Assembly (NCBI GenBank): GCA_035568935.1 | Contig: DATMNP010000121.1 | Location: 6,190 to 70,189, forward strand | Direction: 5' to 3' | Length of the DNA stretch: 64,000 bases | From: Opitutaceae bacterium | GTDB taxonomy: Bacteria; Verrucomicrobiota; Verrucomicrobiia; Opitutales; Opitutaceae | Position numbers and translations under genes: made by a program | The notes under the pieces: model-generated | Database searches by the model: none | Told to the model about the DNA's origin: nothing | The model's input: only the letters and a program-made list of their open reading frames with translations | Shown: positions 8,327 to 62,122 of the stretch, piece after piece | How positions within the stretch are numbered: position 1 is the first letter of the stretch | Layout: each line of letters begins with the position of its first letter

Positions 8327-8394
8327 AACCACGGATTACACGGATGAGCACAGATAAATTTTCTTCATCCGTGTTAATCCGTGCTATCCGTGGT
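8327..8394. repeat. Inverted repeat (ccacggat / cacggatg units) in the pgk-gap spacer
   Basis: aaccacggattacacggatgag faces ttcatccgtgttaatccgtgctatccgtggt. Confidence 0.7.
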
Positions 8395-8419
8395 CAAGAT
8401 GGTTCGTGGTTTGAGTGGC

Positions 8420-9502
<1,083 letters not shown>

Positions 9503-9661
9503 TTAAAGAATCGCATGTGGACGCGAAGAGACCAACAAAGACCCCGCTTTTCCGCTTGGCAAGAGCCAATACACGTCACGCGCTCATGATCCTTGCGCAT
9601 ATTTTGTCATTTTACATTTCTGACGACCGATCCTTGGAAATGGGCATTCTCGCGAAAGGCT

Positions 9662-9711
9662 GAAGGGCTGAAGACTGATTTTGGATTCAGTCTTTCAGTT
9701 GTTCAGCCCTT
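9662..9711. repeat. Hairpin of ctgaagactga-type units overlapping the GH13 stop codon
   Basis: gaagggctgaagactga...tcagtctttcagttgttcagccctt. A related unit occurs at 6131-6159. No T-run follows, so it is not called a terminator. Confidence 0.6.
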
Positions 9712-12174: not shown

Positions 12175-12324
12175 GGGCGTGGAGAAGCATCGGACGTGCG
12201 CGGACGCGCACAAGCCGGAAAATTTTATCCAGGTATTTTGCTTGTTTTTAGAAAAATGCGTGCGCGGGGCTTTTCATTCGTCATTCGTGTTTGCCCCTCC
12301 CGCCAGGAATCCCACCTTAAAGAA

Positions 12325-13413: not shown

Positions 13414-13432
13414 GGTCGAGGTCGGACTACGA

Positions 13433-15181
13433 TCAGGCGGTTGCTTCCTTCACCGAATGCTTTGAGCCCTTGTCCAAATCGGGCGGCACGTTTGCGATGG
13501 CTTCTTCCATGGTCGTCAGGCCTTCCTTGACCTTGAGCATGCTGTCCTGGTGAAGCGTCTTCATACCGTTGCGCATGGCGATTTTTTTCAGCTCGGCGGT
13601 CTCGATTTCCTTGTTGATGCCCTCCACCAGCTCCTCGCTGATGACCATCAGTTCGTGAATGCCGACGCGGCCTTTATAGCCGTTGTTGGAGCACTTGGTG
13701 CACCCCTTGGGGTTGGCCTTGAAAATTTGCCCGCTCCAGCCGAGCGCGGATTCGAGAATGTCCTTTTCCCGGCCCTTGGGTTCAATGGGCACGCGGCAGT
13801 TTTTGCACACGCGGCGCATGAGGCGCTGGGCACAGACACAGAGCAACGACGACGAAATCATGAAAGGCTCGATGCCCATGTCCGTGAGGCGGGCGATCGT
13901 GCTGGGCGCGTCGTTCGTATGCAGCGTGCTGATGAGCAAATGGCCGGTGAGCGCGGCTTCGACGGCAATGTCCGCCGTCTCGCGATCGCGGATTTCGCCG
14001 ACGAGGATGATGTCGGGATCCTGGCGCAAAAAGGCTCGCAGCGCCGTGGCAAAGGTGAGGCCGATCTGCTTGTGCATCTGCATCTGGTTGATGCCGTCCA
14101 GCGTGTATTCGATGGGATCCTCGGCGGTGCGGATGACGAGCTCGGATGAATTGATTTCGTTGAGCGCGGAATAAAGCGTCATCGACTTGCCGGAGCCGGT
14201 GGGGCCGCAGTGGAGGATCATGCCGTAGGGCTGGCGGATGACTTCGCGGTATTTGACCAGATTCTCCGCGGAAAAGCCGAGGGATGCGAGCGGCAGCGTC
14301 GATTTCTGTTTGTCGAGGATGCGCATGACCACGCCTTCGCCATGGTTGAGCGGCCCGGTGGAGACGCGCAGGTCGATATCGATGCCCTTTTTTGAGTACT
14401 GCTTGAAAACAATGCGGCCATCCTGCGGCAGGCGGCGTTCGGCAATGTTAAGGTCGCACATGATCTTCAAGCGGGCCACCAGCGCGGGGCCAACCTTGGC
14501 CGGCAGCCGGAGCTTTTCCTGGCAGATACCGTCGACGCGGTAGCGGACAATCACCTCTTTTTCCTGCGGCTCGATGTGAATATCGCTGGCCCCGGCAAAA
14601 TAGGCATCCTCGATGATGCGGTTGCTGAGCTGGATGATCGGGCCGGATTCCTCGGTGACGTCCTCGATGTTAATCCCAACGTCCTTCTCGCCAAACTCCT
14701 GGCCGATCTCCTTGACGACTTCGGCAAACTGCGCGTCGCCCTGCGTACGATCCCTGATAAATTTGTCGCGGAGATCCTTTTCCCGGCTGAGCAGGCGAAT
14801 GACGCGCAGGCCCGTCATTTCAGTGATTTTATTTGGCACCGAGACCTCGAATGGATTGGCAAAGGCCACGAGGAGAAAGTTGCCCACCTTGCCCACGGGC
14901 ATCACGAGGTTCTCCTTGCAAAACTCGAGCGGCAGATGCTCGTAGGTTTCGTTGTTCACACGATAGCGGCTGACGTTGAAGGGCGCGAGGCCGAGCGCAC
15001 TCCCTTTGGCCACGAGGATTTGGAAAGGCGTAAGGTTGTAATCGTCCTGCAGCAGCCGGTCGAGGACGTCACCGGTGGGCTCACCGGGAACGGCGCCAAT
15101 GGCCGAGCATTGCTCGGGGGTGATCAGCTCCATTTCCTCGAGCTTGGCGACGATCTGGGTCTGGATTTTTCCGAGCGGCAT
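13433..15181 (-). CDS. PilB/GspE-family secretion ATPase
   Basis: N-terminal T2SSE_N-like domain, Walker A GPTGSGKS, Walker B ILVGEIRD, and a CxxC...CxxC tetracysteine motif. Confidence 0.9.
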
Positions 15182-46726: not shown

Positions 46727-47179
46727 CTAGATTCCGATGCGGCGCATGAGGTCGCCGAAGTTTTCTCCCGAGGTGCGCACCTCGACCTTGGTCCAGCGGT
46801 CGGGCGCCCAGATGGCGAATTTGTTGAGCGAGCCGACCAGGACGGCGTCTTTCGCGATCCCGGCGTACTTCAGGAGTTCGGCGCTCACGCCGAAGCGGCC
46901 CTGCTTGTCGAAGCTGAAGGAAAGGGTCTGCGCGAAGAAACGCGCGAAGGCGTCCTGCGCGTCGCGATCGGTGAGCGCCTTGGCGGAAACTTTTTCGTGG
47001 AGCTTCTCGACCTCGGCCGGCGGGAGCACGGCGATGTAACCGTCGGGGTGCGGCGTGGCCAGGAACGTATCGGTCTCTTCGTGCGCAAAACGCCAGGCCG
47101 ACGGAATCGTGAGGCGACTCTTATCGTCAAGGGTGTGCCGGAAGAGGCCGGTATAAAAAGGTTTGCCGTTTTGAGCCAT
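46727..47179 (-). CDS. mraZ: Transcriptional regulator MraZ
   Basis: Two SpoVT/AbrB-like halves carry DDKSRLTIPS and DKQGRFGVSA (DxxxR motifs). Start at ATG 47179. Confidence 0.9.
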   Translation of the reverse strand: MAQNGKPFYTGLFRHTLDDKSRLTIPSAWRFAHEETDTFLATPHPDGYIAVLPPAEVEKLHEKVSAKALTDRDAQDAFARFFAQTLSFSFDKQGRFGVSAELLKYAGIAKDAVLVGSLNKFAIWAPDRWTKVEVRTSGENFGDLMRRIGI

Positions 47180-47202
47180 GAAGGGACGGTGTAGCACAAG
47201 TG

Positions 47203-47238
47203 CCCCACCATCCCCCATTATTCCCCATATTAACCCAC
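47203..47238 (-). promoter_or_regulatory. Putative MraZ operator: four TGGG(G) direct repeats with exact 10-bp phasing
   Basis: On the plus strand, ccca occurs at 47204, 47214, 47224 and 47234. This is 25-58 nt upstream of the mraZ ATG. A TTGACT -35-like hexamer lies at 47247-47242 on the minus strand. Confidence 0.55.
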
Positions 47239-47281
47239 CGAAGTCAAGAAAACTCCTGCCCGTTTACGTAGTTTTTTGGGG

Positions 47282-47369
47282 AAAATTTGCGCTGAGACCG
47301 AAAGGTTGAGCCGTTTCAAGTTTCAGTGGAATGATCCCGAATTATCCTGAACGATTGCGAAGGCCAATG
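47282..47369 (+). repeat. Direct repeat, left copy (partner 57174-57250)
   Basis: aaaatttgcgctgagaccgaaaggttgagccgtttcaagtttcagtggaat[gatcccgaatt]atcctgaacgattgcgaaggccaatg. It is near-identical to the right copy apart from an 11-nt indel and a few substitutions. Confidence 0.85.
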
Positions 47370-47467
47370 AGTTATAAAATCAGCGGCGGCCTTCGGAAAA
47401 AATGAATCTGTAGCACCAAAGAAAATCCGTAGCATTTTCCATGTCCAGCGCTGTCCCACCATTCGCA

Positions 47468-47500
47468 TTTGTAACACACGTAAATTAATGTGTTAACAAA
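47468..47500. promoter_or_regulatory. Near-palindromic site tttgtaacacac-N9-tgtgttaacaaa (candidate operator / end-binding site)
   Basis: The TTGTAAC half-site recurs at 48227-48233 in the divergent promoter region, and inverted at 57151-57157. Confidence 0.35.
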
Positions 47501-47522
47501 TCACTCGGACATTTCGCCGCGC

Positions 47523-47549
47523 AAAACGGCTCAAGTTTTCAGTCTCAGC
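47523..47549 (-). repeat. Inverted partial copy of the repeat core
   Basis: aaaacggctcaagttttcagtctcagc is close to the reverse complement of gctgagaccgaaaggttgagccgtttc (47291-47317 and 57182-57208). Confidence 0.7.
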
Positions 47550-47650
47550 TTGGGGTGGGACGAGGGACATGGTTTGCATCGTCCCGATTTAGGCAAACCG
47601 GTGGCCAATGTTGAGGCCTCGACAAATTTCGAGACGCAGCCGTCGACCTT

Positions 47651-48211
47651 CTATAGCGAATGAGGCCTATTTGTGATTTTTTTGGTTTTGGCAATTGCTA
47701 ATCGGATCTCCTCCAATTGAGCCATGACCGAAGCAGCCTGTTCCATAGCTTGGCGCGGATCCGGGTTGTTTTTCACATGTTCTATTAGATCCGCAAGCGT
47801 CTGGGCAAATTGCTTTGTGCCACGAGTCAGTTTGTACCGCGACGATCTAATCAGCGGGACGAAACAGCTGTCATAAATTTCGCTAAACCGGCCTTTTTGT
47901 GCTGCCGACTTAGCCGGTTCAGAAAATGTGACGGGGATATAATGATCGAGCTTGCCGTGGCCAGTTGCTAACCACGCTTGGCTGACGTTCAGCACCTCAC
48001 ACACTCGGTCGCCTACAATCCACGGAAGAGGTACGCGCCCATGCTCATAGCTCGATAACCTGTCGCTGCTCACACCAATTCTGACGGCTAGAGCTGATCG
48101 CTTTGCGAGGCAGTTCTCACGTATATCGCGCAATCTTTGGCCGATTGCCTTCTCTCTTTCTGGAACTGGATTTTGCCTGGGCACGATAAAATCATTGGTC
48201 TCCCCCAACAT
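47651..48211 (-). CDS. XRE/cI-type repressor
   Basis: HTH IGQRLRDIRENCLAKRSALAVRIGVSSDRLSSYEHG. Divergent from the Ner-like gene. Start taken at ATG 48211 (MLGETNDF). Confidence 0.65.
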   Translation of the reverse strand: MLGETNDFIVPRQNPVPEREKAIGQRLRDIRENCLAKRSALAVRIGVSSDRLSSYEHGRVPLPWIVGDRVCEVLNVSQAWLATGHGKLDHYIPVTFSEPAKSAAQKGRFSEIYDSCFVPLIRSSRYKLTRGTKQFAQTLADLIEHVKNNPDPRQAMEQAASVMAQLEEIRLAIAKTKKITNRPHSL

Positions 48212-48253
48212 AGTGCAAGATTGCGCTTGTAACGTACACAGAAACACGGAAAC
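48212..48253. promoter_or_regulatory. Divergent control region between the repressor and Ner-like genes
   Basis: A 42-nt spacer containing cttgtaacgtacacag. Confidence 0.4.
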
Positions 48254-48640
48254 ATGATTCTCGTGACCCAAGGCACGACTACACTCAGGGCTATTCTCGC
48301 CATGCGCGGTCTTTCGCATTCTTATCTTGCAAATCAAATCGGTCTATCCCGCGGCACCGTCAAAAACATCTCATGTGGAAGCAGCCCTAGTCTACGTGGC
48401 CGGAGTAAGATCGAGAATTTTTTAGGGATTCCTATTGCGTGGCCTACACGACTGCCTCGCAAAAATGCCACCGGCTTCCAGATCACTTGCGCCGCACCAG
48501 CAAACACACTGCAGGGATCGAAATCCGAGCTTCCCCTACCCTTGCCATCTGAGCCTGTAACACGGGACAGCGTGGACGGGGTCGGTCACTCACAGAGCCA
48601 CAACAAAATCCTGGAAATAATCAATGAGCAGCCTGGTTGA
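48254..48640 (+). CDS. Ner-like DNA-binding protein
   Basis: LRAILAMRGLSHSYLANQIGLSRGTVKNISCG...IENFLGIPIAWPTR parallels the phage Mu Ner pattern (...LS.SALSRQ.G....T..N......I.N.L.....IWPSR). Confidence 0.6.
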   Translation: MILVTQGTTTLRAILAMRGLSHSYLANQIGLSRGTVKNISCGSSPSLRGRSKIENFLGIPIAWPTRLPRKNATGFQITCAAPANTLQGSKSELPLPLPSEPVTRDSVDGVGHSQSHNKILEIINEQPG

Positions 48641-51473
48641 ACTCATCTTCTCCGCCGTTGGCACCGAGGCGGCGGGGAGCGCCATCGAAGGCGTCAGCGG
48701 TAAGATCGCGGACATGACCCGCGAGCTCGGCCGCTTTGCGACCGTCGGCCTGACGGTCGAATCCGCGTTCGAGGGCGTCAAGGGCGCCCTGGCAGACGGG
48801 GAAATGTTTACCCAGCTAAAGGCCAGGACCGGCGAGAACATCAAGGATCTGGTCGTCATGACCCAGGAGTTCAAAAACGCCGGTCTTGGTGCCGAATTTA
48901 TCGGGACTTCGGCGAACCTTCTCCAGCGCGCCCTGGGCGGCGTCAACGAGATGGGGGGGCGGACCGAAACGGCATTTCAGCGCCTCGGCACTTCCATTGC
49001 CCAACTCAAGCCGCTGACCTATGCGCAACAGCTGCAGGTGCTGGGCGAAGGTTTTTCGAAAATCCAAAACCAATCTGAACGCGCCAATATCGCGATGCAG
49101 ATTTTTGGCCGCGGCGGCGGAATGATGCTGCAGCTGCTCGGCGATCCGAAGGCAATGAAGGAAGCGGCGGAGCAGGCCGGCCGCTACGGCGACATGATGC
49201 AGCAGAACGCTGCGCACCTCAAGGAGGTCGAAGAGCATCTTGGCGTGGTGAACCAACGCATGAAGGAATTGTATCTCACGGCTGCGGAGTCGTTGCTCCC
49301 GACGATGGAAAACATTGCCGGCCTTTTTAAAGAGCTAGATCTCAGGCCGGTGGGGTCATTTCTCGGCGGCTCCGTTCCGATCGTATTTGCCTCGGGCATG
49401 GCCACAATGCTGGTCAAAACGTTGGACAATTCTGTTCTCGATTGGGCAACGCGCTCGGGAAACCCAATCGGCCAGGCTTTCGCTGGGCAATTCGTCGCTC
49501 CTATTACCGGTCTTTTGTCTCGCGCGCTTCCAGTGGCATTAGCGGCGGCTATTGGATTCGCTATAGGAAAAGGCATTCACGATGCGATCGACGAGGCCCG
49601 CGCCAATGAGATCAATAAATTATCCGCGATCGAGGGTGACGTGGGAGACACGACGACGAAGGACCTCCATGGTTTGCGCGATGCGACGAATCAAGGCGAA
49701 CTCGACGCCGCCAAGAATCAAATCCGCGCGGACATCAAGGAGGCACAGTTCACGATCTATGAATTGTCCAGGAAGAAAAAATTGCATGACGAAGGCGCGG
49801 CGGCTGGACCATGGGCCGGACCCAAGTTCAACGAGGAAGATCAAACCCGCCTCGACGCCACCAAGCAGCAACTGGAGACGCTGCAGCGAACATTCGATCA
49901 TCCGGTCAATGCGCAGTCGATTTTCGCCCAGAATAAGCTCAAGGAAATCCGCGAGTCCCTGGAACCTCTCGTCACCGATTTATCGCAGCTTCGCGAGCAA
50001 AACGACAAGCTGACGATGCAGGACATGGATCCGGCGCAAAAGGCGAAGCTGCTGCAGTCCAGGCGCACCGACGTCGAGAGCCAGCTAGGCCAGACCATGC
50101 CGGCCGGCCTGGATAAAGATTCGGTCGAGGCGCGGCGGCTCAGCCTGGAAAATCAGCTTCTCGAAATCAAACACCAGCAGGCCGAGAACAACGCGAAGCT
50201 CACGGAGCAGGAAACCAAACTGACCGAAGAGAAAAAGAAGCAAGCTGACGCCGCGGAGCGCCAGCAAGTCTATGCCCTGGAGACGCAGATCAAGGTCGCC
50301 GAGGCGGCCGGCAACGATCAGCTCGCGCAAAAGCTGAAGCAAGAGCTCGAACTCAAGCAGGCGCAATATTCGATGTCCGGGCTCGATCTGGATCTTGCAA
50401 AGCAGCGCCTCTCGGCCGAACTACAGATTTTCGAAGCGGAGCAAAAGCAAAAGGGCGCCAAGGCAGAAATCGAAGCGGAAAAGAGCGCCCTCGAAAAACA
50501 GCTTTCGGACATCCGTGAAAACATCGCCTCCATGCAAGGCGACGAAACTCATACCCAGGCCGAACAATGGTCCACGCGCAAGCAGGCGATTGAGGAAGAA
50601 ATTGCCACAATCAAAAAGACGATCGACACGGAGAATGCGCTGGCGGCCGCTGCGCGTGGACCTGGTGGTGCTGGTGAGCAGGTCGCGGTCCTGCATGACA
50701 ATGCCGCGACGCAGGCCAGCAACCAGCTCGCCGGCGCGCAGCATGAGAAAGCGGGTCTAGGACCAAACCCCGACGATGTTGGCGAGCAATTGCAGGTAGA
50801 GAGCCAAAAGGTGGCAAACAGCATGGGCACGGTCGCGGAGCAGATCGGCCGCTCCTGGGGGAGCGCCGCCGAATCGATGCGTTCCTCGATGGCGAATTCG
50901 CTTTACGATATGCTGGAGCATACGCGCAATTTCAAGCAGGCCGCCGGCGCGCTTTATATCTCGCTCGTGCAGGACCTCGCTCGCAGCGGCTCGCAGATGG
51001 CCTCGAATTGGATGATGACGCATGTTGTCATGGACGTGGCTCGCCGTGGGTTTCATGCGCTGGGCGTAGGCGAACAGGCAACCGCCACCGGCACGGAGAC
51101 CACAATCCATACCGGCGGCGAGGCGGCTAAAACGGCTGCGACAGCAGGTGGAGCGGCGGCACGCGGCGGAATTCGAATACTGGAAACGGTTTTTCACGGC
51201 ATCCAAGTTGGAATCAGGACGACGATGCATATCGCGGGAGAAGCCATGCAAACCGCCGTAACGATGGTGCAAACCGGCTTGCGCATCGCTGCTGCCATTG
51301 CTGAATCGATCGCTAAAATCATAAGCGCGGCCGCGGGCGCAATGGCGGCGATGGCTTCCATTCCCTATGTCGGCCCGATCCTGGCGGTCGCGGCCATGGC
51401 CGCGATCGTCGCGGCAGGCATCCAGGGCATCGCTCACGAAGTATCGATGAGCAATATCCGCAAATACGCTTGA
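48624..51473 (+). CDS. Tape-measure-like protein (TMP N-terminal core, long coiled coil, G/A-rich hydrophobic tail)
   Basis: ETAFQRLGTSIAQLKPLTYAQQLQVLGEGFSKIQNQSERANIAMQIFGRGGGMMLQLLGD is TMP-core-like. Residues about 330-640 are E/K/Q/L-rich. The C-terminus is ...AAAGAMAAMASIPYVGPILAVAAMAAIVAAG. Confidence 0.65.
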   Translation: MSSLVELIFSAVGTEAAGSAIEGVSGKIADMTRELGRFATVGLTVESAFEGVKGALADGEMFTQLKARTGENIKDLVVMTQEFKNAGLGAEFIGTSANLLQRALGGVNEMGGRTETAFQRLGTSIAQLKPLTYAQQLQVLGEGFSKIQNQSERANIAMQIFGRGGGMMLQLLGDPKAMKEAAEQAGRYGDMMQQNAAHLKEVEEHLGVVNQRMKELYLTAAESLLPTMENIAGLFKELDLRPVGSFLGGSVPIVFASGMATMLVKTLDNSVLDWATRSGNPIGQAFAGQFVAPITGLLSRALPVALAAAIGFAIGKGIHDAIDEARANEINKLSAIEGDVGDTTTKDLHGLRDATNQGELDAAKNQIRADIKEAQFTIYELSRKKKLHDEGAAAGPWAGPKFNEEDQTRLDATKQQLETLQRTFDHPVNAQSIFAQNKLKEIRESLEPLVTDLSQLREQNDKLTMQDMDPAQKAKLLQSRRTDVESQLGQTMPAGLDKDSVEARRLSLENQLLEIKHQQAENNAKLTEQETKLTEEKKKQADAAERQQVYALETQIKVAEAAGNDQLAQKLKQELELKQAQYSMSGLDLDLAKQRLSAELQIFEAEQKQKGAKAEIEAEKSALEKQLSDIRENIASMQGDETHTQAEQWSTRKQAIEEEIATIKKTIDTENALAAAARGPGGAGEQVAVLHDNAATQASNQLAGAQHEKAGLGPNPDDVGEQLQVESQKVANSMGTVAEQIGRSWGSAAESMRSSMANSLYDMLEHTRNFKQAAGALYISLVQDLARSGSQMASNWMMTHVVMDVARRGFHALGVGEQATATGTETTIHTGGEAAKTAATAGGAAARGGIRILETVFHGIQVGIRTTMHIAGEAMQTAVTMVQTGLRIAAAIAESIAKIISAAAGAMAAMASIPYVGPILAVAAMAAIVAAGIQGIAHEVSMSNIRKYA

Positions 51474-51476
51474 GCC

Positions 51477-52019
51477 ATGACCATGAAGGCACGCAATACC
51501 AGAGACCAGGAGAGCGAACGCGCAATTTTTCTGCACGAAGTTTTTCTCAAGATCAAAAAACGCATCGCAAATGGTGACACACTGAAATCCGCCATCGCTT
51601 GGGCCGCCCGCCGCCGTAATTTCCGCCTGATCCGCGAGGGAATGCTCGGGGAAAACAGGTTGGTCGCCTTATATTATATTTGGCGCCAGAATCCATCGCC
51701 CAAGGTTTTTCACAGGCATTACAAGGGGCCGGAGCGGCGTATTCCAATTGACCTGGCATTGGAAGCCTTGAACCGCATGGCAGGCGATAAAGTCCGGCCA
51801 GCAGCGATCGTGATCCGCGAGCTGCGCAACGATTTCTCAGCGGGCCAGCGGATCACCGATGCGACGCTGAAACTCCTCGCGAGCATCGATGCCTTTAACA
51901 ATCGGTTCGAGCTTCTACTCTTTCGCCTTCGGACGCGTCACTGGGAAACCAGCAACGCCGCTGCAATCCTCGAATTCAAGGCTGAGGGGACAAGCGCCAA
52001 AGCTGCAGGCAGCAACTGA
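51477..52019 (+). CDS. Hypothetical protein
   Basis: ATG 3 nt after the TMP-like stop. No family recognised. Confidence 0.5.
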   Translation: MTMKARNTRDQESERAIFLHEVFLKIKKRIANGDTLKSAIAWAARRRNFRLIREGMLGENRLVALYYIWRQNPSPKVFHRHYKGPERRIPIDLALEALNRMAGDKVRPAAIVIRELRNDFSAGQRITDATLKLLASIDAFNNRFELLLFRLRTRHWETSNAAAILEFKAEGTSAKAAGSN

Positions 52020-52027
52020 TTCTCCGC

Positions 52028-52375
52028 ATGAACGCCCGTAAAAAACCTGGGATATTGCCCCGGCTGCAGCTGATGCAGCCGGGGCAGATCGATGCCCTGG
52101 TCAAGTGGCTGGCTGAAGATAAGCTCACCTATGCCCAGGCGCGCCAGAGATTGAAGACTGAATTTGGTGTGGTCACGACCGACTCCGCGCTTTCGGGTTT
52201 TTGGCAGCAAGTCGTCGCCCCACGGCAATGGGCAAAGTTGGTCACCGCTGAGCGAGCCAAAGTCTTTGTCGGTGAAAGTAGAATCCTTCTCGAAATCCAG
52301 GTGCGGGCAGAAGCAGACAATACACTCCGCATCACCGTGTCCGGCCCAGCCGCGGCTGCAACCACACCGGCCTGA
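52028..52375 (+). CDS. Small hypothetical protein (weak resemblance to Mu gp27/DUF3486-type HTH proteins)
   Basis: ILPRLQLMQPGQIDALVKWLAEDKLTYAQARQRLKTEFGVVTTDSALSGFW. The similarity is judged by eye only. Confidence 0.45.
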   Translation: MNARKKPGILPRLQLMQPGQIDALVKWLAEDKLTYAQARQRLKTEFGVVTTDSALSGFWQQVVAPRQWAKLVTAERAKVFVGESRILLEIQVRAEADNTLRITVSGPAAAATTPA

Positions 52376-52377
52376 CC

Positions 52378-52719
52378 ATGAAAATTGACTGGCCACGGGT
52401 ACTTGCCCGCCTCGAACGCGAAAATCGCGTCTGCCTAAAAGTCAGGGAAGCGGCGGATATTTTTGGCGTCTCTGGTGCCCATATCGTCAATTTTATTGAG
52501 GACGGGACACTTACCGCCATCGACTTCGCCCGCCGGGAGAAGCCAAACAAGCACTGTTACCGTATCCCGGCAGACTCGTTGATGGAATTTGCCCGCCGCC
52601 GCTCTACCATGGCCAGCGACGGATCAGACCCTGAATCGCCAGTGAAATCGAACGTGAAGGAATACCCTGGCGTCCTGCTTTACCTAAGTAGGGCCGCGCG
52701 CGAGCTAAATCATTCCTGA
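52378..52719 (+). CDS. Excisionase/MerR-type HTH protein
   Basis: CLKVREAADIFGVSGAHIVNFIEDGTLTAIDF...YRIPADSLMEF is typical of excisionase-family HTH domains. Confidence 0.5.
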   Translation: MKIDWPRVLARLERENRVCLKVREAADIFGVSGAHIVNFIEDGTLTAIDFARREKPNKHCYRIPADSLMEFARRRSTMASDGSDPESPVKSNVKEYPGVLLYLSRAARELNHS

Positions 52720-52745
52720 CGATCTGCTATACTGATTCTAATCCT

Positions 52746-55358
52746 GTGAATGCTCTCTCTCCAAGCCGCCAATCCCAGCTGATGCCAGCAGAAATGCCGA
52801 CGTTTGGGTTTAAGGGCCCTTTGTCTCCCGCGGCGGGTCAAGCGCCGGTGGGTGGCGGGAAAATGGCGGGAAGCCCAGTTGCAAGAGCTGCAAGGACTTG
52901 TTCTATAACGCGTCAAACTTCGGTGCAGGCTGGCGCGCTGGCCAGCAAGCCGGTTGTTTTAACGGCCGCACAGGTCGGTGTGGCACTCGGACGCCCTGCG
53001 CGCAGCATCCGCCGAGACCTTGCGGGGATTGAATCCGATGGCACCGTCATCACAAGCGGTAACCCAACGCAGTCCTGGGCGCTTTCTAATCTGCCGCCCA
53101 AGCTGCAATCAGCCCTGCAAACTGAAGCCACGCGGCGGGGTTACGCATCAGTCGAGCGTTTGCTTGAATTTCCGCCTCAACGCTGGGAGCCAGTGCAACC
53201 GCTTAACTCGTTGGATCCTGCGCCGGTGGCAGAGGCATCGAAACTTCAGAAGGCGCTCGCCCCGACCCTGCTCCGCCTTTCAGACCTGAGCCTCTCCCAG
53301 GAGGAAATCTCCGCACGGGGTCTGGCAGAATATACGGCCGCTTTTGGCCACTCTGTTTCAAAACGCCATTTTGATCGGCTCCTGAAACGCACGCTCGACC
53401 GGGATGCTGGTGCAGAGGATTGGTCGCGCCTGGAGTTATTTTTGCCCGACAGGTTGGCGACGAAGAAATCCACCGCGATCTCATTTGGATTTTCCGAAAA
53501 TTGGCCGGGAGTTTTAGCCACCGTGGCCATGGTAAAGGATGTGGCCAAACCAACGAGCGATGAACTTTCGCTTTTTTGGGATGCCGCCTGCGCCGACTAC
53601 GAGGCCGCGGTTGAGTCCGGGATGCCTGAACGGCGAGCCCGTCGTGAGCTGCGAAAAATGATCGAGGCCAAAGTGTCTTTTGTTCGCTCTTCCGGGCGCG
53701 CCCTTGAGCAAAAATTTCGTCGGGTGTTGGAAAAATGGATAGAGGGCGATCGCACAGCGACGGCCGTGGCCGATCTCCGGCACGAAAACTCCGGGCGCAA
53801 AAAACCCGTAACACTACCGAAGGAATTCAAAGAAAAACTTTTGGCGCGGGTACACGGCAACGGCGGCCGGTATGCGCAATCGTGGCGAGAAGCGATCAAA
53901 CAAGGGTGGATGCCCGCCGACGTTGCAGCCGCTTACCCTTTTAACTGGGAGCACAAATCTTACGTCCCGGCCGCCATTCGCAGCGCACTGGGGCCTGATG
54001 TTGAGATATTGAAGCCGCTGCGCATCGGCCCCAAGAATGCGCGGCTTAAGGGATCGTATATCAGCCGGGACTATTCCAACGTTCCTTCGGGAAAAATTTT
54101 CTCCTCCGACGACTGTACCGCGCCGATCTTCTTTTGGGTCCCTGATGAGACCGGCCGGCCGCTCCTCAATGATGCAGGAAAGCCCATAATAACTCGCGGC
54201 CAGTGGTTGCCGTGGATCTGCGCACGCACTCAATTCATTGTTACTTTTCAACTTATCCCGGAACGTGGTTACGATTCCATCGAGATCCTGCGCGGCATCG
54301 GACGCCTTCACGACGAATATGGCCTCCCGGAGCAATTGCTTTTCGAAAACGGAATCTGGAAATCCAGGTTAATCGATGGCACCCGTCAAGAAGGTGTCGA
54401 GTTGCCCGACTACTTCTTCGGATTAGCCGGGGTTGGAGTGAGAATTCGGCACGCCCGGCCTCGCAATCCACGCGCGAAGATCGTCGAGAGTGTCCTTGGC
54501 CAATTGCAAAATCAGATGGACCGGCTGCGCGGCTACGGGGGACGGAAGCCCGATCAAATCCCAGAAGAAACCCAGCGCGCGCAGCTATTGGTGGGACGTG
54601 GAGAGGCGCATCCAAGCGAATTCTTCTACTCGCATCCAGAGGTGGTCAAAGTCTACGAGGGCATCTGCAACAATTTCAATGAAGAGCCTCAGAACGGAAA
54701 AATGCTGGAGGGGCTGAGCCCCCGCGCAGCATTTGAGAAACTGCAGGAATCGCCGCCGATGAAACTGACACCAGAGCTTCGATATCTCCTCGCCCGCTCT
54801 CGCGTCGAGACAACGGTAAAACCGAATGGCATCCAGATCGGAAAATTTTGGTACAAGGGCGAGCGAGCGTCCGCCCTGGTTGGGCAGCGTGTTTTAGCCT
54901 GGTTCAACGCCGAGCATCCGGAATCGATCTGTGTAACAGACTTGGATCATAAAAACCCGTTCACCCTCCGCCGTACCGACGAAGTTCCTGCTTTCGACGC
55001 AACACCGGAGCAGTTCGCGGCCGCCGAGCGCGCAAATCACGCCCAAACCAAATATCAGCGCACACTGTTTGGGAATCTGATCCACAATTTTCCAGAAGAA
55101 TTCCTTCGCCGTCGACGTGGCGTCGTCATCGCACCCGAACAAGCTGTCGCTCTCGGCATTGAAATGGAAAACCAGCGGCAGCAAAACAATGAAGAGGCCA
55201 CAAAGACGGAGCGGCGCCGTGCGAAGGGCGAGCGGCACGCGCGCGCGGTTGGTTTAAATGGCCTCGGTCGCCGGGTAGATGATGAAACAGTTGAAGCTCT
55301 GGGCAGGCTTGAGCGCGCCGGAGTGAAAGCCACCAACCCATTAGCCGAACAGCCATGA
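52746..55358 (+). CDS. MuA-like DDE transposase
   Basis: The core aligns by eye to MuA. IFSSDDCTAPIFFWV matches WNGDGYLHNVFV, WLPWICARTQFIV matches TWFWQDVKTRKIL, LLFENGIWKS matches ITIDNTRGAANK, and RAKIVESVLG matches QAKPVERAFG. The track start is GTG 52746; ATG alternatives are 52782 and 52863. Confidence 0.75.
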   Translation: MNALSPSRQSQLMPAEMPTFGFKGPLSPAAGQAPVGGGKMAGSPVARAARTCSITRQTSVQAGALASKPVVLTAAQVGVALGRPARSIRRDLAGIESDGTVITSGNPTQSWALSNLPPKLQSALQTEATRRGYASVERLLEFPPQRWEPVQPLNSLDPAPVAEASKLQKALAPTLLRLSDLSLSQEEISARGLAEYTAAFGHSVSKRHFDRLLKRTLDRDAGAEDWSRLELFLPDRLATKKSTAISFGFSENWPGVLATVAMVKDVAKPTSDELSLFWDAACADYEAAVESGMPERRARRELRKMIEAKVSFVRSSGRALEQKFRRVLEKWIEGDRTATAVADLRHENSGRKKPVTLPKEFKEKLLARVHGNGGRYAQSWREAIKQGWMPADVAAAYPFNWEHKSYVPAAIRSALGPDVEILKPLRIGPKNARLKGSYISRDYSNVPSGKIFSSDDCTAPIFFWVPDETGRPLLNDAGKPIITRGQWLPWICARTQFIVTFQLIPERGYDSIEILRGIGRLHDEYGLPEQLLFENGIWKSRLIDGTRQEGVELPDYFFGLAGVGVRIRHARPRNPRAKIVESVLGQLQNQMDRLRGYGGRKPDQIPEETQRAQLLVGRGEAHPSEFFYSHPEVVKVYEGICNNFNEEPQNGKMLEGLSPRAAFEKLQESPPMKLTPELRYLLARSRVETTVKPNGIQIGKFWYKGERASALVGQRVLAWFNAEHPESICVTDLDHKNPFTLRRTDEVPAFDATPEQFAAAERANHAQTKYQRTLFGNLIHNFPEEFLRRRRGVVIAPEQAVALGIEMENQRQQNNEEATKTERRRAKGERHARAVGLNGLGRRVDDETVEALGRLERAGVKATNPLAEQP

Positions 55359-56971
55359 TTAAACCCGCTCAACTCGAAGAAGTGGCCGCCGCAGGCCCAA
55401 TTCTAGGCCACCATGCCGGCCAGACCGTTGCCTATATCTCCGATCCGAAAAAGAGACCATTAATATGGTTTCTTCACTGGCGCTCTCACCAGCCGGGCGG
55501 TCTCAAGCGGTTTTGTTACGAACTAATCAACCGGAATCTTCGTGCCCGACTTGGCTCAGAAACTATGCACCGGATCGGATTTAATCCATCAACGGTCTAC
55601 GCTGGGCAGCCTTTCGAGGATATCTGTAACGAGCTGTCTTTTTTCCCTTCTGGGGCGCGCAATCATCTTGAGTGGACGATCGAGATTCACGCGTCGATAT
55701 TTAGAGGGCTTGAACAGGACGGCGAATTAGCGAAGGCAAAAAAGCTTCTTAGCCCAGAGAGCCGGCGGGCCTCGGCGGCAACATTCCTTAACGAATGCCG
55801 AGATTTGGCATGCTCTGGCCTGGCGCATCACATTCGGAATTTCTGCAGCGATCACAGCGCAAAGTGGGAAGTCCGATATCTTCACGACTTGGTCGGAGCC
55901 ATCACCGAGATGATGAAGGACCAGGCTGACTTCGCCCGCTCTCAGACCGCCGAAACAAAAATTGCGAGTAATGTAAGCGATACCCTTGAGTTTTCCTATC
56001 GGACGCGCGGCCTGGTTGTCATTTACGGAATCGAGCGGATCGGTAAAACCAAAGCGGCAGAACGATGGGTTGCGATGAATCCAGACAAGGCGCGGCTAAT
56101 CCGGTTGACCGCCACCACAAATGACCTCCTGTTTTTTTCCGAGGTGGCCGAAGCGATCGGTTGCGGAGACATGCGCGGCCAGACGGTCGGTGAAATGCGC
56201 GACCAAATTCGGGGCACGGTGAAGAGCCGGGATCTGATGCTGATTTTTGACGAGGCCCACTGCCTCTTCGGCCTTTCTCCCAAGGGATCTATTAAACGCC
56301 TGGAGTATATTCGCACTGAACTTGTGAACAACGATATCCCAGTTGCGCTCATCATCACCCCGCAGTTCGCAAATCGGCTGGCCGGCCTAGAGCGCTCGAC
56401 CGATTTCAACCTCAATCAATTTAGGGGCCGGGTCACAAAATGGGCGGAACTCCCTGCGAAGCCCTCGCGCGCTGATATCGAGAGCATTGCCCGCTTCGGT
56501 CTTCCAGAAATTGACGACAAATGCCTTGCCTTGTTGGCAGATTCCGCGGCTGGCAGCGAATTCCCGCTTGCAGCGTTGCACAACGCCATTCTGGAAGCGA
56601 AAACCATTATAGAAAAAAACGGTAGCGCAATCACGCTGGATCTGGTCAAGCAGGCGGTTGGATTTGCCATGTGGACCACCGCCCGGCTCGCGGAAACAAT
56701 CCCGGCTCCCGCCTCCAAAACAACAAAGCGGCGTAATCGCGTCGTGACGGTCGATACGTCGATGTCGAGCCGTGCTTCTGGTGATGGGTTGCAAGCTGCA
56801 TCGCCGGCGGTTGCAGGCCGCCTGCAATCTCCTGGAAACGATACCTCTCTAACGGCCGCACAATCACCCGATCGCGGTTCAATGCCAGGCCGCTCGATCA
56901 TCCCTTATGACGAGCCAATATCGAGCAGCCGTCAGCGCCAGGGCGTTTTGATTCCAGCATCCATTTTGTGA
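55355..56971 (+). CDS. MuB/TniB-like AAA+ transposition ATPase
   Basis: Walker A YGIERIGKTKAA and Walker B LMLIFDEAH. ATGA overlap with the transposase stop. Confidence 0.7.
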   Translation: MIKPAQLEEVAAAGPILGHHAGQTVAYISDPKKRPLIWFLHWRSHQPGGLKRFCYELINRNLRARLGSETMHRIGFNPSTVYAGQPFEDICNELSFFPSGARNHLEWTIEIHASIFRGLEQDGELAKAKKLLSPESRRASAATFLNECRDLACSGLAHHIRNFCSDHSAKWEVRYLHDLVGAITEMMKDQADFARSQTAETKIASNVSDTLEFSYRTRGLVVIYGIERIGKTKAAERWVAMNPDKARLIRLTATTNDLLFFSEVAEAIGCGDMRGQTVGEMRDQIRGTVKSRDLMLIFDEAHCLFGLSPKGSIKRLEYIRTELVNNDIPVALIITPQFANRLAGLERSTDFNLNQFRGRVTKWAELPAKPSRADIESIARFGLPEIDDKCLALLADSAAGSEFPLAALHNAILEAKTIIEKNGSAITLDLVKQAVGFAMWTTARLAETIPAPASKTTKRRNRVVTVDTSMSSRASGDGLQAASPAVAGRLQSPGNDTSLTAAQSPDRGSMPGRSIIPYDEPISSSRQRQGVLIPASIL

Positions 56972-57173
56972 ACCGCAACTTACCCTCTTCTTTTCTAACC
57001 GGGATCCATTCCAAGCACAATCGCCGCTAACCCTCCACCACACTTCATTTTATAGTCCAATTCCGACCGTTGATTCGGCCATTTTTTACCGGGCATTTTG
57101 ACCCGGTTTTTGTGTTTCCCGCGACTTTTGGACATCTGACACTCAAAACGTTACAACTTTTCGGTGACTGTAC

Positions 57174-57250
57174 AAAATTGCGCTGAGACCGAAAGGTTGA
57201 GCCGTTTCAAGTTTCAGTGGAATCATCCTGAACGATTACGAAGGCCAATG
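57174..57250 (+). repeat. Direct repeat, right copy (partner 47282-47369)
   Basis: aaaattgcgctgagaccgaaaggttgagccgtttcaagtttcagtggaatcatcctgaacgattacgaaggccaatg. Confidence 0.85.
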
Positions 57251-58046: not shown

Positions 58047-59600
58047 TTAGGGCATGGCTTTTAGAGAGAGGGCCGCCTGCATGGCGGTCCCCAGCGAATG
58101 AAGCGTGGCGGGTTTGAGCAAGAGCTGGCGAATGCCCGCCGCTTCGACTTGTGCAGCCGTGAGCGACGCGCTGTATCCGGTCATTAAGATGATGGGTAAC
58201 TCGGGACGGATTTGCAGGAGCTGGATCGCGAGATCAAAGCCCGTCATCACAGGCATGGTCTGGTCCGTAAGCACGAGCGCAAAGCGTAGCGGATCGGCTC
58301 GCACCATGGCGAGCGCAGCTGCGGGCTGCGTCGTGATTTTGACCTCGTAGCCGAGCGCAGCTAATGCGTTCTGGCCAAGATGGACGAGTACGTCCTCGTC
58401 ATCGACAAATAGCACCTGTTCGCCATGACCGCGTGGTACCGCTCCCTGCTCGACCGCGGCCGTTGTGGCCTCGCCGGCATGCGCGGGAAAATAGAGGTAA
58501 AAGATGGTTCCCTCGCCAGGCTGGCTGTGAACCGTGACCGCGCCGTCGTGGTTTTTCATGATGCCATGTAGCACGGACAAACCCAAGCCGGTGCCTCCAC
58601 AGCGCGGCCTCGTCGTGAAAAACGGTTCAAAAGCCCGCTGCACCGTGGCCAAATCCATACCGCATCCGGTATCACGGACGGACAGGCGCGCGTAGTCGCC
58701 CGGCTTTAGCTGCGCTTGCGTGGCAGCAAAGGTCTCATCGACCAGGTATTTTTCCAATTTCACTTGTATCTGACCGGGGCGGTCTTTCATCGCGTTCCAG
58801 GCGTTGGTCCCTAGGTTCATCAGAATCTGATGAATCTGGGTCGCGTCGGCGAGCACCGTGGGAACATCCGACGCGAGCGACGTATCAAATTCGATGGTCG
58901 AAGGGATCGTCGAACGCAACAGTTCGAGACTTTCGGTTATCACTGGCTGTAGATGGATCGGCCGGCGCTCCAGTGGCTGCTGGCGGCTGAAGGTGAGAAT
59001 CTGCCGCACGAGATCGGTGGCGCGTTTCGACGCCTGCAAGATCGCGCCGAGATGAACGCGTACCTCGGAATTTTCCTTCAGCTTCATCTGCGCGAGCTCG
59101 GTATAACCCATTATCGCAGTCAGGATGTTATTGAAGTCGTGCGCGATTCCGCCGGCCAGCGTGCCGATCGCCTCCATCTTTTGCGCCTGCCGGAGTTGCT
59201 CCTCGATATTACGATGCTCCGCGTGCAGTCGGCTGGATTCCAAGGCATGGCTGACGGCTGACTCCAAACGCGCCAATTGACCTTTTAGCAGGTAATCCGC
59301 TGCGCCTAGCTTCATCGCCGCAACGGCGGTATCTTCGCTGATGGTTCCCGACACAATGATAAACGGCACCTCCAGTCCGTGCTGTTTCAGCACCTCCAGT
59401 GCACGCAGCCCGCTGAATTGCGGCATCTGGGAGTCCGACAGTACCAGGTCGAGCCCGTCGTGCAGGTGCTCGAGAAATGCCGCCTCGGTATCCACCCGCT
59501 GCCAGTCGGGCTCGAACCCGGCGTGGCACAGGCTTCGCACCAAGAGCTCGGCATCGGCGGAGCTGTCTTCGACGATCAGGATTTTGATTGGATGTGGCAT
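58047..59600 (-). CDS. Hybrid histidine kinase with N- and C-terminal receiver domains
   Basis: ILIVEDSSADAELL...DLVLSDSQMP (REC1), [11 protein letters not shown] (H-box), [18 protein letters not shown]...ALVLTDQTMP (REC2). Confidence 0.85.
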   Translation of the reverse strand: MPHPIKILIVEDSSADAELLVRSLCHAGFEPDWQRVDTEAAFLEHLHDGLDLVLSDSQMPQFSGLRALEVLKQHGLEVPFIIVSGTISEDTAVAAMKLGAADYLLKGQLARLESAVSHALESSRLHAEHRNIEEQLRQAQKMEAIGTLAGGIAHDFNNILTAIMGYTELAQMKLKENSEVRVHLGAILQASKRATDLVRQILTFSRQQPLERRPIHLQPVITESLELLRSTIPSTIEFDTSLASDVPTVLADATQIHQILMNLGTNAWNAMKDRPGQIQVKLEKYLVDETFAATQAQLKPGDYARLSVRDTGCGMDLATVQRAFEPFFTTRPRCGGTGLGLSVLHGIMKNHDGAVTVHSQPGEGTIFYLYFPAHAGEATTAAVEQGAVPRGHGEQVLFVDDEDVLVHLGQNALAALGYEVKITTQPAAALAMVRADPLRFALVLTDQTMPVMTGFDLAIQLLQIRPELPIILMTGYSASLTAAQVEAAGIRQLLLKPATLHSLGTAMQAALSLKAMP

Positions 59601-59609
59601 GGCGGGAGT

Positions 59610-60062
59610 TTATTCGCTTAATTTCGGCGGCTGGTTGTGGAGCAACCAATAGAGCCCGAGGTCGCGCACGGCCTCGGCGAACTGTTCAAAGTTAACCGGC
59701 TTCACGATATAACTGTTCACGCCGAGTTGGTAGCTCTCGACCACGTCGCTCTGCTCTTTCGACGAGGTGAGCACGACAATTGGGATCATTTTTGTGCGCG
59801 AGTCGCCCTTGATGCGCTTCAGCACTTCCAGCCCGTCAATCTTGGGCAACTTCAGGTCGAGCAGGATCACTTTGGGGCTGTCCGTGATCCGGCGGGCAGC
59901 GTGCGGGCCTTCACAAAAGATAAACTCCAATGCCTCGGCGCCGTCGCGGGCAACGTGGATTCGGTTCGAGAGATTGGCCTTGCGCAGGGCGCGCAGGGCC
60001 AGTTCAAGGTCCTGCGGATTATCCTCGACGAGCAAAAGCTCGACGGTGTTGGTTTCATTCAT
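59610..60062 (-). CDS. Single-domain response regulator (Rcp1-like)
   Basis: [18 protein letters not shown]...[17 protein letters not shown]...PIVVLTSS...SYIVKP. Confidence 0.9.
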
Positions 60063-62122
60063 GATGTAGTTTCCTTTTCCAGGGTGAAATAAAACGTCGC
60101 TCCACGATCAATGGCCGCCTCCCCCCACACCCGCCCGCCATGGCGTTGGATGATTCGCTGTACGATGGCGAGACCGACGCCCGTGCCCTCGTAGTCCTCC
60201 GCGCGATGCAACCGCTGGAAGACGCCAAAGAGTTTGTTGGCATAGCGCATGTCGAAGCCGGTGCCATTGTCGCGGACAAAAAAAGTTTCGGCACCGTTGG
60301 TCTTCATGCAGCCGATTTCCACCACGGTTTTTTCCCGCTTGCGCGTATATTTCAGTGCGTTCGAGAGAAGGTTCAGCCAGACTTGTTTCAACAATACCGG
60401 ATCGCCTGGACTCGCCGGCAAGTCTCTGGCAAGAATCTCGACCGATCGGTCCGACCACGGGGATCCCAACTCGTCGAGCGCATCGCGCACGAGTTTGCCG
60501 GTGTCAATTACCCGTTTGTTCAGTTCCTGGCGATTGAGCCGCGCAAACGTCAGCAAGTCGTCAATCAACGCGCCCATCCGCTGCGCGCCTCCACGGATGG
60601 TCTGCAAGTAACGCCGACCTTCCTCCGGCAACTGAGGGCCGTAATCCAGCAGCACCGCTTGCGAAAATCCATCCACGGCGCGCAACGGAGCGCGCAGATC
60701 GTGCGACACGGAGTAGGAGAATGCCTCCAGTTCTTTGTTCGCTGTTTCCAATTCAGCCGTGCGTTGGATCACACGCTGCTCGAGTTCGGTGTTGAGTTGC
60801 CGGACGGTTCCTTCCGCCGCCTTGCGCTCGGTAATGTCGGCCCTGATGGCGACGTATTGGCGGGGTTTGCCCCGGTCGTCGAGAAACGGCACGATGGTCG
60901 TGTCCACCCAGTAAAATGAACCGTCTTTTGCCTTGTTCTTGATTTCACCATGCCACACGCGCCCGTGCCCGATGGTCGTCCATAGCTTATGGATGAACTC
61001 TTTGGGGTGGTAGCCGGAGTTGATGATGCGATGGTCCTGGCCGAGCAACTCTTCACGCGAGTACTTGGAGATGGTGCAGAACTTGTCGTTGACGAAGGTG
61101 ATCTTTCCCCGCGAATCGGTGATCGCCACGATCGCGTGCTCGTCGAGTGCTGCCTTCAGGTCGAGCACTTCCTTGGTCGATGCCTTCAACTTTTCTTCCG
61201 CCGTCTTGCGCTCGGTGATGTCGGCGCGGATGGCGACGTATTGGCGGGGCTTGCCCTGGTCGTCGAGAAACGGCACGATGGTCGTGTCCACCCAGTAAAA
61301 TGAACCGTCTTTTGCCTTGTTCTTGATTTCGCCATGCCACACGCGTCCGCGCCCAATGGTCGTCCACAGCTCATGGATGAACGCTTTGGGATGATAGCCC
61401 GAGTTGATGATGCGGTGATCCTGGCCGATCAACTCTGCGCGAGAGTACTTGGAGATGGTGCAGAACTTGTCGTTGACGAAGGCGATCTTTCCCCGCGAAT
61501 CGGTGATCGCCACGATCGCGTGCTCGTCGAGTGCTGCCTTCAGGTCGAGCACTTCCTTGGTCGATGCCTTCAACTTTTCTTCCGCCGCCTTGCGCTCGGT
61601 GTTATCGGTGCCGATCAGCAGATAGCCGATGATTCCGGCTTGCGCGTCGCGCAGCGCCGTGACCGACACTACCGCCGGGAACCGGCTGCCGTCCTTGCGG
61701 ATGTAGGTCAATTCATAGATGTCCTCGATCCCGCGCGAGGCCTTGAAGACCAAAGCTTCGAAACCCGGCGCGATGGGAGTGGCGAACTCGAGGCTCAATC
61801 CGGTGGCGCGCGCAATCAATTCCTGCGGGTCGGAGATTTCGGCCGGGGTGCTCTTGTTCAATACGTCAGCGGCCGCATAGCCAAGCATGCGCTCGGCGCC
61901 GACATTGAAAACCTGGATTACACCCTTCTCGTCGGTGGCGATGCTGGAAAAGTTGGCGCTGTTGAGAATCGCATTCTGCAAGATCCCGGCCTTGAGCACA
62001 GCCTCTTTGCGTCGAGCTTCGGTGATCACTTCCACCGAGGCACATGCAAGCAGTTCGGCCTCTTTGGGGAGCAAGGGTGGTTTCATGGGTGATAGCGGGA
62101 CCAGCGGAACTCTTTGGAACAT
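60059..62122 (-). CDS. Multi-PAS sensor histidine kinase
   Basis: Three PAS units, then [14 protein letters not shown] (H-box), DNGTGF and [13 protein letters not shown] overlap with the response regulator start. Confidence 0.85.
60830..61597 (-). repeat. Tandem duplication (2 x 384 nt) encoding two near-identical PAS units
   Basis: Residues 176-303 and 304-431 differ at only a handful of positions ([38 protein letters not shown]...). Confidence 0.9.

Follow-up and report, generated by a model that had tools for sequence, protein, structure and literature searches.

The stretch of DNA analysed here (hereafter, the window) comprises 64,000 nucleotides of contig DATMNP010000121.1 from an Opitutaceae bacterium, and beside the promoter of mraZ, at the division and cell-wall (dcw) genes, it carries a transposable element of 9887 bp (47288-57174) for which this position appears to be a target and not an accident. 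An earlier note on the sequence had described a tight unit of eight genes at this place, a compact Mu-like transposable module distinct from both an ordinary Mu-like prophage and a plain insertion sequence, and profile, sequence, and fold searches support that description. All eight open reading frames (ORFs) are present where the earlier note had placed them (Table 1). From the Ner-like gene onwards, consecutive genes are joined, as it had said, first by 17 shared nt, then by spacers of 3, 8, 2, and 26 nt, and last by an ATGA overlap, which couples the ATPase gene to the transposase gene. The window proteins were scanned against Pfam, PHROGs, NCBIfam, and PADLOC. The eight proteins of the element matched no capsid, portal, terminase, baseplate, or lysis family in Pfam, PHROGs, or NCBIfam, in line with the claim that such genes are missing, and they matched no tail-tube family in the same three collections.

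Table 1. Features of the element and of the adjacent mraZ promoter, with positions in the window (L numbers denote other loci and contigs compared; HTH, helix-turn-helix)
Feature	Position	Strand	Evidence or remark
mraZ operator, four TGGG repeats in 10-nt phase	47204-47237	minus	Host landmark, outside the element
-35-like TTGACT box of mraZ	47242-47247 (reverse complement)	minus	Host landmark
Target duplication, left copy AAATT	47283-47287		Also the final pentamer of the host's conserved promoter block
Left end, site L1, 5'-TGCGCTGAGACCGAAAGGTTGAGCCGTTTCAAG...	47288-47347	+	Inverted-repeat partner of the right end
Second end-type repeat L2, direct, with ATGTCC...GTCCCACC	47409-47460	+	Kept in L004
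Inverted end-type repeat(s) L3	47499-47575	minus	26-nt inverted L1 copy at 47524-47549 and inverted ATGTCC...GTCCCACC
Repressor, cI/c-type HTH	47651-48337	minus	HTH_31 3.8e-9, Phage_CI_repr 2.5e-4, phrog_2328 7e-9
Ner/Cro-like HTH gene, divergent from the repressor	48254-48640	+	HTH_3 1e-3, HTH_35 4e-3, phrog_769 5e-5
Tape-measure homologue, 949 aa, intact	48624-51473	+	phrog_9483 1.6e-12
g4, 180 aa	51477-52019	+	Homologues in L004, L065, L052, L075
g5, 115 aa, homeodomain-like HTH	52028-52375	+	HTH_32 in 4 of 6 family members, best 1.1e-4
g6, 113 aa, excisionase/MerR-type HTH_17	52378-52719	+	HTH_17 6e-7, TIGR01764 8.6e-4
MuA/TnsB-family transposase, 870 aa	52746-55358	+	phrog_310, Mu-transpos_C, Foldseek
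MuB-like AAA+ ATPase, 538 aa	55355-56971	+	phrog_296, AAA_22
Terminator-like hairpin followed by a T run, 3' of the ATPase gene	57088-57117 (hairpin 57088-57107)	+	
Right end, ...TTTGGACATCTGACA...CTTTTCGGTGACTGTACA-3'	57116-57174	minus	Common to L002, L004, L005, L042
Target duplication, right copy AAATT	57175-57179		
Stand-alone 71-nt copy of left-end positions 2-82	57180-57250	+	Directly after the right AAATT
Filled left junction			GGGGAAAATT / TGCGCTGAG
Filled right junction			GTACA / AAATTGCGCTGAG
Stump-only (empty) junction, as it would read			GGGGAAAATT / GCGCTGAG...CCAATGTCCTG

The limits of the element are defined from both sides. On the left, homology between the window and L004, a diverged relative in a distant Opitutaceae genome, extends leftwards as far as 47288, where the first bases of the element read 5'-TGCGCTGAGACCGAAAGGTTG, and on the right, alignment of the window with related loci fixed the end at ...GTGACTGTACA (57174). 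Bounded in this way, the element is flanked by a perfect AAATT on both sides (...gggga AAATT TGCGCTGAG... on the left and ...GACTGTACA AAATT gcgctgag... on the right), which is the 5-bp target duplication that the earlier note had proposed to look for. The termini are 5'-TG...CA-3', the sub-terminal repeats on the left are two direct and one inverted, and 29 of 50 positions agree between L1 and the reverse complement of the right end, a terminal inverted repeat that none of 200,000 shuffles equalled. A profile of the ends (nhmmer) recovers L1 (E = 3e-7), the right end (E = 4e-14), L3, and the stand-alone right-hand copy. The limits of 47370 and 57250 given in the earlier note turned out to be edges of a ~80-nt direct repeat (47283-47369 and 57174-57250) and are here corrected to 47288 and 57174; the adjacency to the mraZ operator that it had pointed out stands.

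Other ways of drawing the limits were considered and rejected. A left end at 47409, which resembles the right end, would yield no target duplication and leave the ~80-nt repeat unexplained, and we dropped it in favour of 47288, where the element begins with TG, the inverted repeat is stronger, and the window and L004 both show a perfect 5-bp duplication; position 47409 is a second, internal end-type site. The ~80-nt direct repeat could not be read as the attL and attR of a site-specific recombinase, there being no integrase in the element, nor as part of a 125-nt target duplication, since the repetition covers only the first 71-81 nt. The live left end also holds a 10-nt tandem duplication at 47330-47349 (GAATGATCCC GAATTATCCT) that is absent from the right-hand copy at 57180-57250.

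The point of insertion lies just beyond the conserved promoter block of mraZ, which is A+T-rich upstream of the TTGACT box and continues to 47287; relatives L008-L012 keep this block up to ...GGGAAAATT, which corresponds to window positions 47279-47287. The GC fraction is ~0.51 at the insertion site and 0.65 in the dcw genes, with 0.56 in the element and 0.57 in its right flank. The mraZ start is most likely the Met at 47179, giving 150 aa. Judged by the relatives of this protein, the window belongs to the Opitutaceae (Verrucomicrobiota). The longest mraZ ORF (46727-47218, 163 aa) overlaps the TGGG operator, and the gene calls in L004 and in L102, a contig of the window's own organism, use Met 47179. 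The repressor gene points at mraZ with 363 nt of left end between them, a simple scan of the minus strand from the repressor stop to mraZ found no terminator-like sites, and read-through from the repressor gene into mraZ is possible.

The same site is occupied in a second, distant genome. The L004 element (2706-14093 of its locus) starts with TGGGCC..., ends with ...GATACA, and has CCAAC on both sides (...attca CCAAC TGGGCCG... and ...GACGATACA CCAAC tccggg...), and its terminal inverted repeat matches at 26 of 50 positions (11 of 200,000 shuffles were as good). Its transposase and ATPase are 57% and 46% identical to those of the window, and the two hosts differ to the extent that MraZ is 72%, RsmH 76%, the FtsI N-terminus 55%, and FtsL 37% identical. 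In both genomes, exactly 35 nt separate the -35 hexamer from the duplicated pentamer, and both elements have the same orientation, with the repressor end beside mraZ. By comparison, no element genes were found upstream of mraZ in 30 relatives taken from the GTDB (L008-L037), about two dozen of which have more than 2 kb of upstream sequence, and many of these element-free relatives are closer to the window host than that of L004 is (MraZ up to 93% versus 72% identical). The block is thus not one that all relatives carry upstream of mraZ, which the earlier note had named as a mark of an immobile unit. The pentamers, AAATT and CCAAC, differ between the two lineages and are perfect within each, and AAATT is native host sequence in element-free relatives. 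Synteny was set aside as a means of defining the empty site, since relatives differ in the genes they carry upstream of mraZ and their intergenic DNA past the promoter block cannot be aligned.

A further trace of insertion at this place is the stand-alone copy of the left end that follows the right AAATT. A single substitution and a 10-nt gap set it apart from L1 (~95% identity), differences that rule out an assembly artefact or a circle junction, and the simplest reading is that it would be the leftover left end, or stump, of an earlier insertion at the same pentamer. Being ~95% identical to the live left end, such a stump would be recent. The L004 element is followed, after its CCAAC, by a shorter and more decayed counterpart. 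Moreover, the Opitutus sp. GAS368-like metagenome-assembled genome (MAG) L013, whose MraZ is 85% identical, has a lone left-end stump of the L004 type upstream of mraZ (9854-9908, minus strand) in the same orientation, with no element genes within 10 kb of it; this stump, too, was picked up by the profile of the ends. The JGI contig L102, which carries mraZ, stops exactly at 47287, immediately short of the element, and other assemblies also break near the element ends (the end of L005, and the end of L001, which corresponds to window position 57207). If filled and stump-only alleles coexist in the population, the base after 47287 would be T in the former and G in the latter, and such a branch would account for the break in L102. 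From the different but perfect pentamers, the distant hosts, the element-free closer relatives, and the recent stump, we argue that the insertions were independent. As for earlier reports, mraZ is absent from the main text of two surveys of Tn7 attachment sites, and literature searches on mraZ with transposons or prophages brought up no report of such an insertion among the papers listed.

Both large proteins at the right-hand side of the element match Mu-type transposition families, as the earlier note had predicted from their sequences. The transposase, which gene callers begin at 52782 (858 aa), scores 2.4e-25 with phrog_310 and 1.1e-4 with Mu-transpos_C (22.5 bits against a cut-off of 21.7). 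Its AlphaFold model was built from a six-sequence alignment (predicted local distance difference test, pLDDT, 62), and the only significant matches of this model in the PDB (Foldseek; E from 1e-8 to 1e-6, probability 1.0) were TnsB strand-transfer complexes and the MuA transpososome 4fcy, the best being TnsB of the type V-K CRISPR-associated transposon (CAST) and of Tn7. At the sequence level, the transposase profile matched no MuA in the PDB, and the protein matched nothing among the INPHARED phages. The acidic triad is probably D456, E534, and E581. The stretch around E534 reads F-E-x-G-(I/M)-W, with an invariant Glu in the ~55 homologues that cover it (loci L001-L101), and the remaining pair of motifs reads (S/A)DDxT and K-x-(I/V)-E-(R/N). 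The second catalytic Asp lies in a DNT motif in MuA and a DNG motif in TnsB, and the triad of the present transposase may be D-E-E. The ATPase scores 7.4e-21 with phrog_296 (DNA transposition protein) and 5e-11 with AAA_22, its Walker A (GIERIGKT) and Walker B (LIFDEA) motifs are intact, and its residues 199-434 align to phage Mu B (PDB 8xvb, E = 0.005). It differs from phage Mu B in a ~200-aa N-terminal extension, which the latter does not have.

The remaining genes are smaller, apart from the tape-measure gene, and several of them encode HTH proteins. The repressor gene probably starts at the Met at 48214, and the HTH_35 score of the Ner-like protein falls under the Pfam cut-off. The g4 protein has no cysteines and therefore no zinc ribbon. 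The g5 gene lies shortly 5' of the transposase gene in all close relatives; its AlphaFold model (pLDDT 65) gave no significant PDB or BFVD match, and its assignment as a small terminase was rejected at PHROG scores of only 0.038. NCBIfam gave nothing useful for the eight proteins beyond TIGR01764 for g6, the PADLOC defence models gave only HTH noise with the element proteins, and Rfam and tRNA scans of the window region gave nothing. A target selector of the Tn7 kind was sought in particular. No TniQ or TnsD match was found in the eight proteins (Pfam, NCBIfam, PHROGs), searches that a very diverged selector might escape, no TniQ-like protein occurs among the proteins flanking the transposase in relatives, and no TnsA endonuclease was matched in the eight proteins (Pfam, NCBIfam).

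The 949-aa gene that the earlier note had called tape-measure-like encodes a real tape-measure homologue (HWZ95536.1), which matches several tape-measure PHROGs. It is 45% identical to the tape-measure homologue P0008, 39% to P0009 (over ~97% of the query), and 36% to P0013, all three of which lie in complete siphovirus-type tail modules, preceded by genes of chaperone size and followed by genes for Phage_BR0599 and Phage-tail_3 proteins. The window gene lies outside any tail module, its neighbours being ner, g4, g5, and g6, which match no tail family, and its protein found no match among the INPHARED phages. The phage with the closest homologue (45%) encodes a diversity-generating retroelement (mtd, bAvd, and a reverse transcriptase; L107 1939-4593).

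Relatives of the element are few at close range and numerous at a distance. In a set of 5.8 billion proteins, only five others closely resemble the transposase, and an exhaustive phmmer search with it retrieved 964 cluster representatives at E <= 1e-3, 401 of them at E <= 1e-30. Copies of the same layout do exist elsewhere, as the earlier note had suggested checking: L002 (63%), L004 (57%), L005, and L006 keep the order g5-transposase-ATPase, and upstream of that block L002 and L004 have a full-length tape-measure gene, the 3' end of which is found at the contig edge in L005. A layout common to these relatives is therefore inherited in the lineage and not a one-off deletion, and the recurrence of the compact order at 57-63% identity upholds the earlier argument against a simple deletion remnant. 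We surveyed the clade more widely in 64 metagenome loci with 27-63% identity to the transposase. The transposase-ATPase pair is present in all 64, a minus-strand repressor lies a few kb upstream in those with enough flank, and a tape-measure homologue occurs in five (ten loci in all, counting the window, L002, L004, L005, and the neighbours of L006). One locus of ~16 kb, L078 (4897-17671), has genes for a major head protein (phrog_1005 2.6e-40), a protease, a minor head protein, a tail chaperone, and a tape-measure protein around the transposase-ATPase pair. The ten ORFs scanned there include neither a portal nor a large terminase gene, and the locus looks like a capsid-encoding satellite. A scan of IMG/VR for the element gave nothing.

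At least 12 distant loci of the clade abut tRNA genes (Leu, Arg, Asp, Val), namely L040, L051, L066, L078, L081/L082/L067, L070, L076, L080, L007, and L096, together with L085 and L088, which do so on the ATPase side. In five of the tRNA loci, an end-like TG sequence lies 8-15 nt past the CCA end of the tRNA, which suggests that other subclades may home to tRNA genes. The ends and duplications in distant relatives (L038, L049, L066, L078, L081, and others) are ambiguous.

Several known systems resemble the element in part. With phage Mu and mini-Mu, it shares a MuA-family transposase with a MuB-like ATPase, a 5-bp duplication, TG...CA ends with several sub-terminal repeats of which one is inverted, and divergent repressor and Ner-like genes by the left end, and its content is near that of an engineered mini-Mu (ends, c, ner, A, and B). 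It differs from Mu in having a single tape-measure gene and no head, tail-tube, baseplate, or lysis genes, in a transposase with no sequence match to MuA in the PDB and with an invariant Glu at the expected catalytic Asp, and in a defined site and orientation, where Mu is the textbook case of near-random transposition. The gene order is also unlike that of Mu, as the earlier note had stated, with the tape-measure gene and three small genes standing between ner and A, and with A and B abutting the right end. With the Tn7-like elements that lack TnsA (the Tn5053/Tn402 family and type V-K CAST), it has in common a TnsB-like fold, an AAA+ partner, a 5-bp duplication, a fixed distance and orientation from a landmark (in a small sample), tRNA-adjacent relatives, and stumps or tandem copies at the attachment site. 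Unlike them, it has no TniQ/TnsD, Cas genes, or resolvase that we could find, and it has an ATPase nearest to Mu B, phage-type control by repressor and Ner, and a phage tail gene.

Phage satellites (P4-like elements, phage-inducible chromosomal islands, PICI, and capsid-forming PICI) are likewise 10-16 kb in size, repressor-controlled, and equipped with a partial set of virion genes; some relatives of the window element have capsid, protease, and chaperone genes, and g5 is a weakly small-terminase-like HTH protein. Those satellites, however, use a tyrosine or serine recombinase and not a Mu-type transposase; any helper dependence of the window element is hypothetical, and we know of no phage satellite described with a tape-measure gene as its sole structural gene. 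The siphoviral Mu-like phages (B3, D3112, and RcapMu type) are transposable too and have long tape-measure genes and siphovirus tails, and homologues of the window tape-measure gene stand in tail modules of that kind, followed by Phage_BR0599 and Phage-tail_3. Such phages differ from the element in being complete, at 35-40 kb, with c-ner-A-B at the left end and near-random insertion.

We read the element, with a probability of about 0.62, as a seemingly intact element from a small and little-described clade of the Mu/Tn7 superfamily, satellite-like in content and directed in its insertion at mraZ. It would move by Mu-type strand transfer with a 5-bp stagger, and its target choice would be directed as in Tn7, at a set spacing from some landmark towards mraZ, perhaps the operator/promoter block or a protein bound there. 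Such a landmark would outlive each insertion, so that the site could be hit again while older copies are pushed outward and decay. Because no TniQ or TnsD was detected, the selector is probably to be sought among g5, g6, the ~200-aa N-terminal extension of the ATPase, and the host MraZ on its operator. From the compact layout and the scattered virion genes, we infer that a helper-dependent natural mini-Mu or satellite would fit better than a decayed prophage. A broader proposal is put forward only tentatively: that elements of this kind are transposable phage satellites that keep just the virion genes they need and home to the mraZ promoter or to tRNA 3' ends with neither TniQ/TnsD nor a CRISPR guide, possibly by way of the MraZ-bound operator or an HTH protein of their own. 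On this proposal, the MuA/TnsB superfamily would have a third targeting mode.

A number of points weigh against this reading. The case for targeting draws on two complete elements plus a pair of stumps, and L002 (63%), the closest relative, lacks sequence of its left flank. In L013, the putative target pentamer at the stump is 23 nt from the -35 box, not 35, which puts the stump 12 nt nearer the promoter. That the right-hand repeat in the window is a stump is something we infer, and its counterpart in L004 is only ~20 nt long with two indels. The site is A+T-rich within a G+C-rich genome, which by itself would attract a MuB-type ATPase, and the searches brought up no selector protein. Profile scores behind the Ner and cI assignments are weak. 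The transposase has a clade-wide invariant Glu where the second catalytic Asp is expected, a position around which the structure model is poor, and activity of the element is predicted from intact genes and ends alone. A tape-measure role for the 949-aa protein, packaging of the element, and a helper phage are conjectures that gene content would suggest.

The A+T-richness of the site is also what would be expected if the element were the dead, immobile remnant of a full Mu-like prophage, placed at mraZ by the A+T preference of a MuB-type ATPase (GC ~0.51 against 0.65 in the dcw genes). The tape-measure gene, whose nearest relatives stand in complete tail modules, would then be a survivor among structural genes otherwise lost, and the different scraps of structural modules held by other members of the clade could be seen in the same light. 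Yet the eight ORFs are intact, with the transposase and Walker motifs in place, both ends and the 5-bp duplication are perfect, and the compact order recurs at 57-63% identity and is not derivable by deletion from the c-ner-A-B order of Mu; chance, moreover, cannot give the same nucleotide and orientation at mraZ in two genomes. We regard a dead remnant as unlikely. The identity of position and orientation in the window and L004 would instead follow directly from a single ancient insertion in an Opitutaceae ancestor, inherited vertically, possibly domesticated for dcw regulation, and mostly lost. The divergence of the elements (57% for the transposase and 46% for the ATPase) is about that of the hosts (55% for the FtsI N-terminus, 37% for FtsL, and 76% for RsmH), and the L013 stump indicates that loss by deletion occurs. 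Such descent, however, would not lead one to expect pentamers that differ and are still internally perfect where the surrounding intergenic DNA is scrambled, it sits badly with AAATT being native in element-free relatives and with a stump beside the window element that is recent by its ~95% identity, and it needs a separate loss in each of many closer relatives. We consider it very improbable.

The fold of the transposase raises the question of a closer tie to Tn7, since its best matches are the TnsB proteins of type V-K CAST and Tn7. The element could be an unrecognised Tn7-like or Tn5053-like branch with TnsB- and TnsC-type proteins, no TnsA, a TniQ/TnsD hidden in the small ORFs, and the phage genes as cargo, and the site- and orientation-specific insertion with a 5-bp duplication and the tRNA genes beside other clade members, as beside many Tn7-like elements, agree with this. 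Against it stand the failure of the eight proteins to match TniQ/TnsD and the lack of cysteines, and hence of a zinc ribbon, in g4. Among solved structures, furthermore, the ATPase matches phage Mu B and not TnsC, and its PHROG is one of Mu-type transposition proteins; having a repressor/Ner switch beside the left end is characteristic of Mu, and the end with the transposition genes is the one distal to the landmark, the reverse of Tn7. A branch of that kind seems to us rather improbable. A Mu-type element directed to mraZ remains our preferred reading, and we class it as a new combination of Mu-type machinery, apparent Tn7-type homing, and satellite-like content in an element of the Mu/Tn7 superfamily.

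To our knowledge, precise targeting in the MuA/TnsB superfamily has so far been tied to TnsD/TniQ, TnsE, or CRISPR guides. If the preferred reading is true, a Mu-type element homes without a recognisable selector, and targeted insertion arose in another way; with only its ends, a pair of enzymes, and perhaps a single small protein, the system would also be compact enough for dissection or engineering. The tape-measure gene and the partial virion sets of relatives would point to a kind of phage satellite not yet described, in soil Verrucomicrobiota and their neighbours. For the host, it could matter for dcw regulation that a mobile unit under repressor control stands 35 nt away from the master promoter of the cell-wall and division genes, with the repressor gene pointing into that promoter.

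Beyond the right end of the element, the flank at 58047-62122 (minus strand) encodes a sensor kinase, a response regulator, and a 687-aa protein. Homologues of these (36-53% identical) lie at 7422-12289 of L042, where they immediately follow the right end of an element of 37% identity but in opposite orientation, and this similarity of flanks could be a shared ancestral neighbourhood, an inversion, or a coincidence. Two-component genes also stand 3' of the ATPase gene in L040, L007, and L002.

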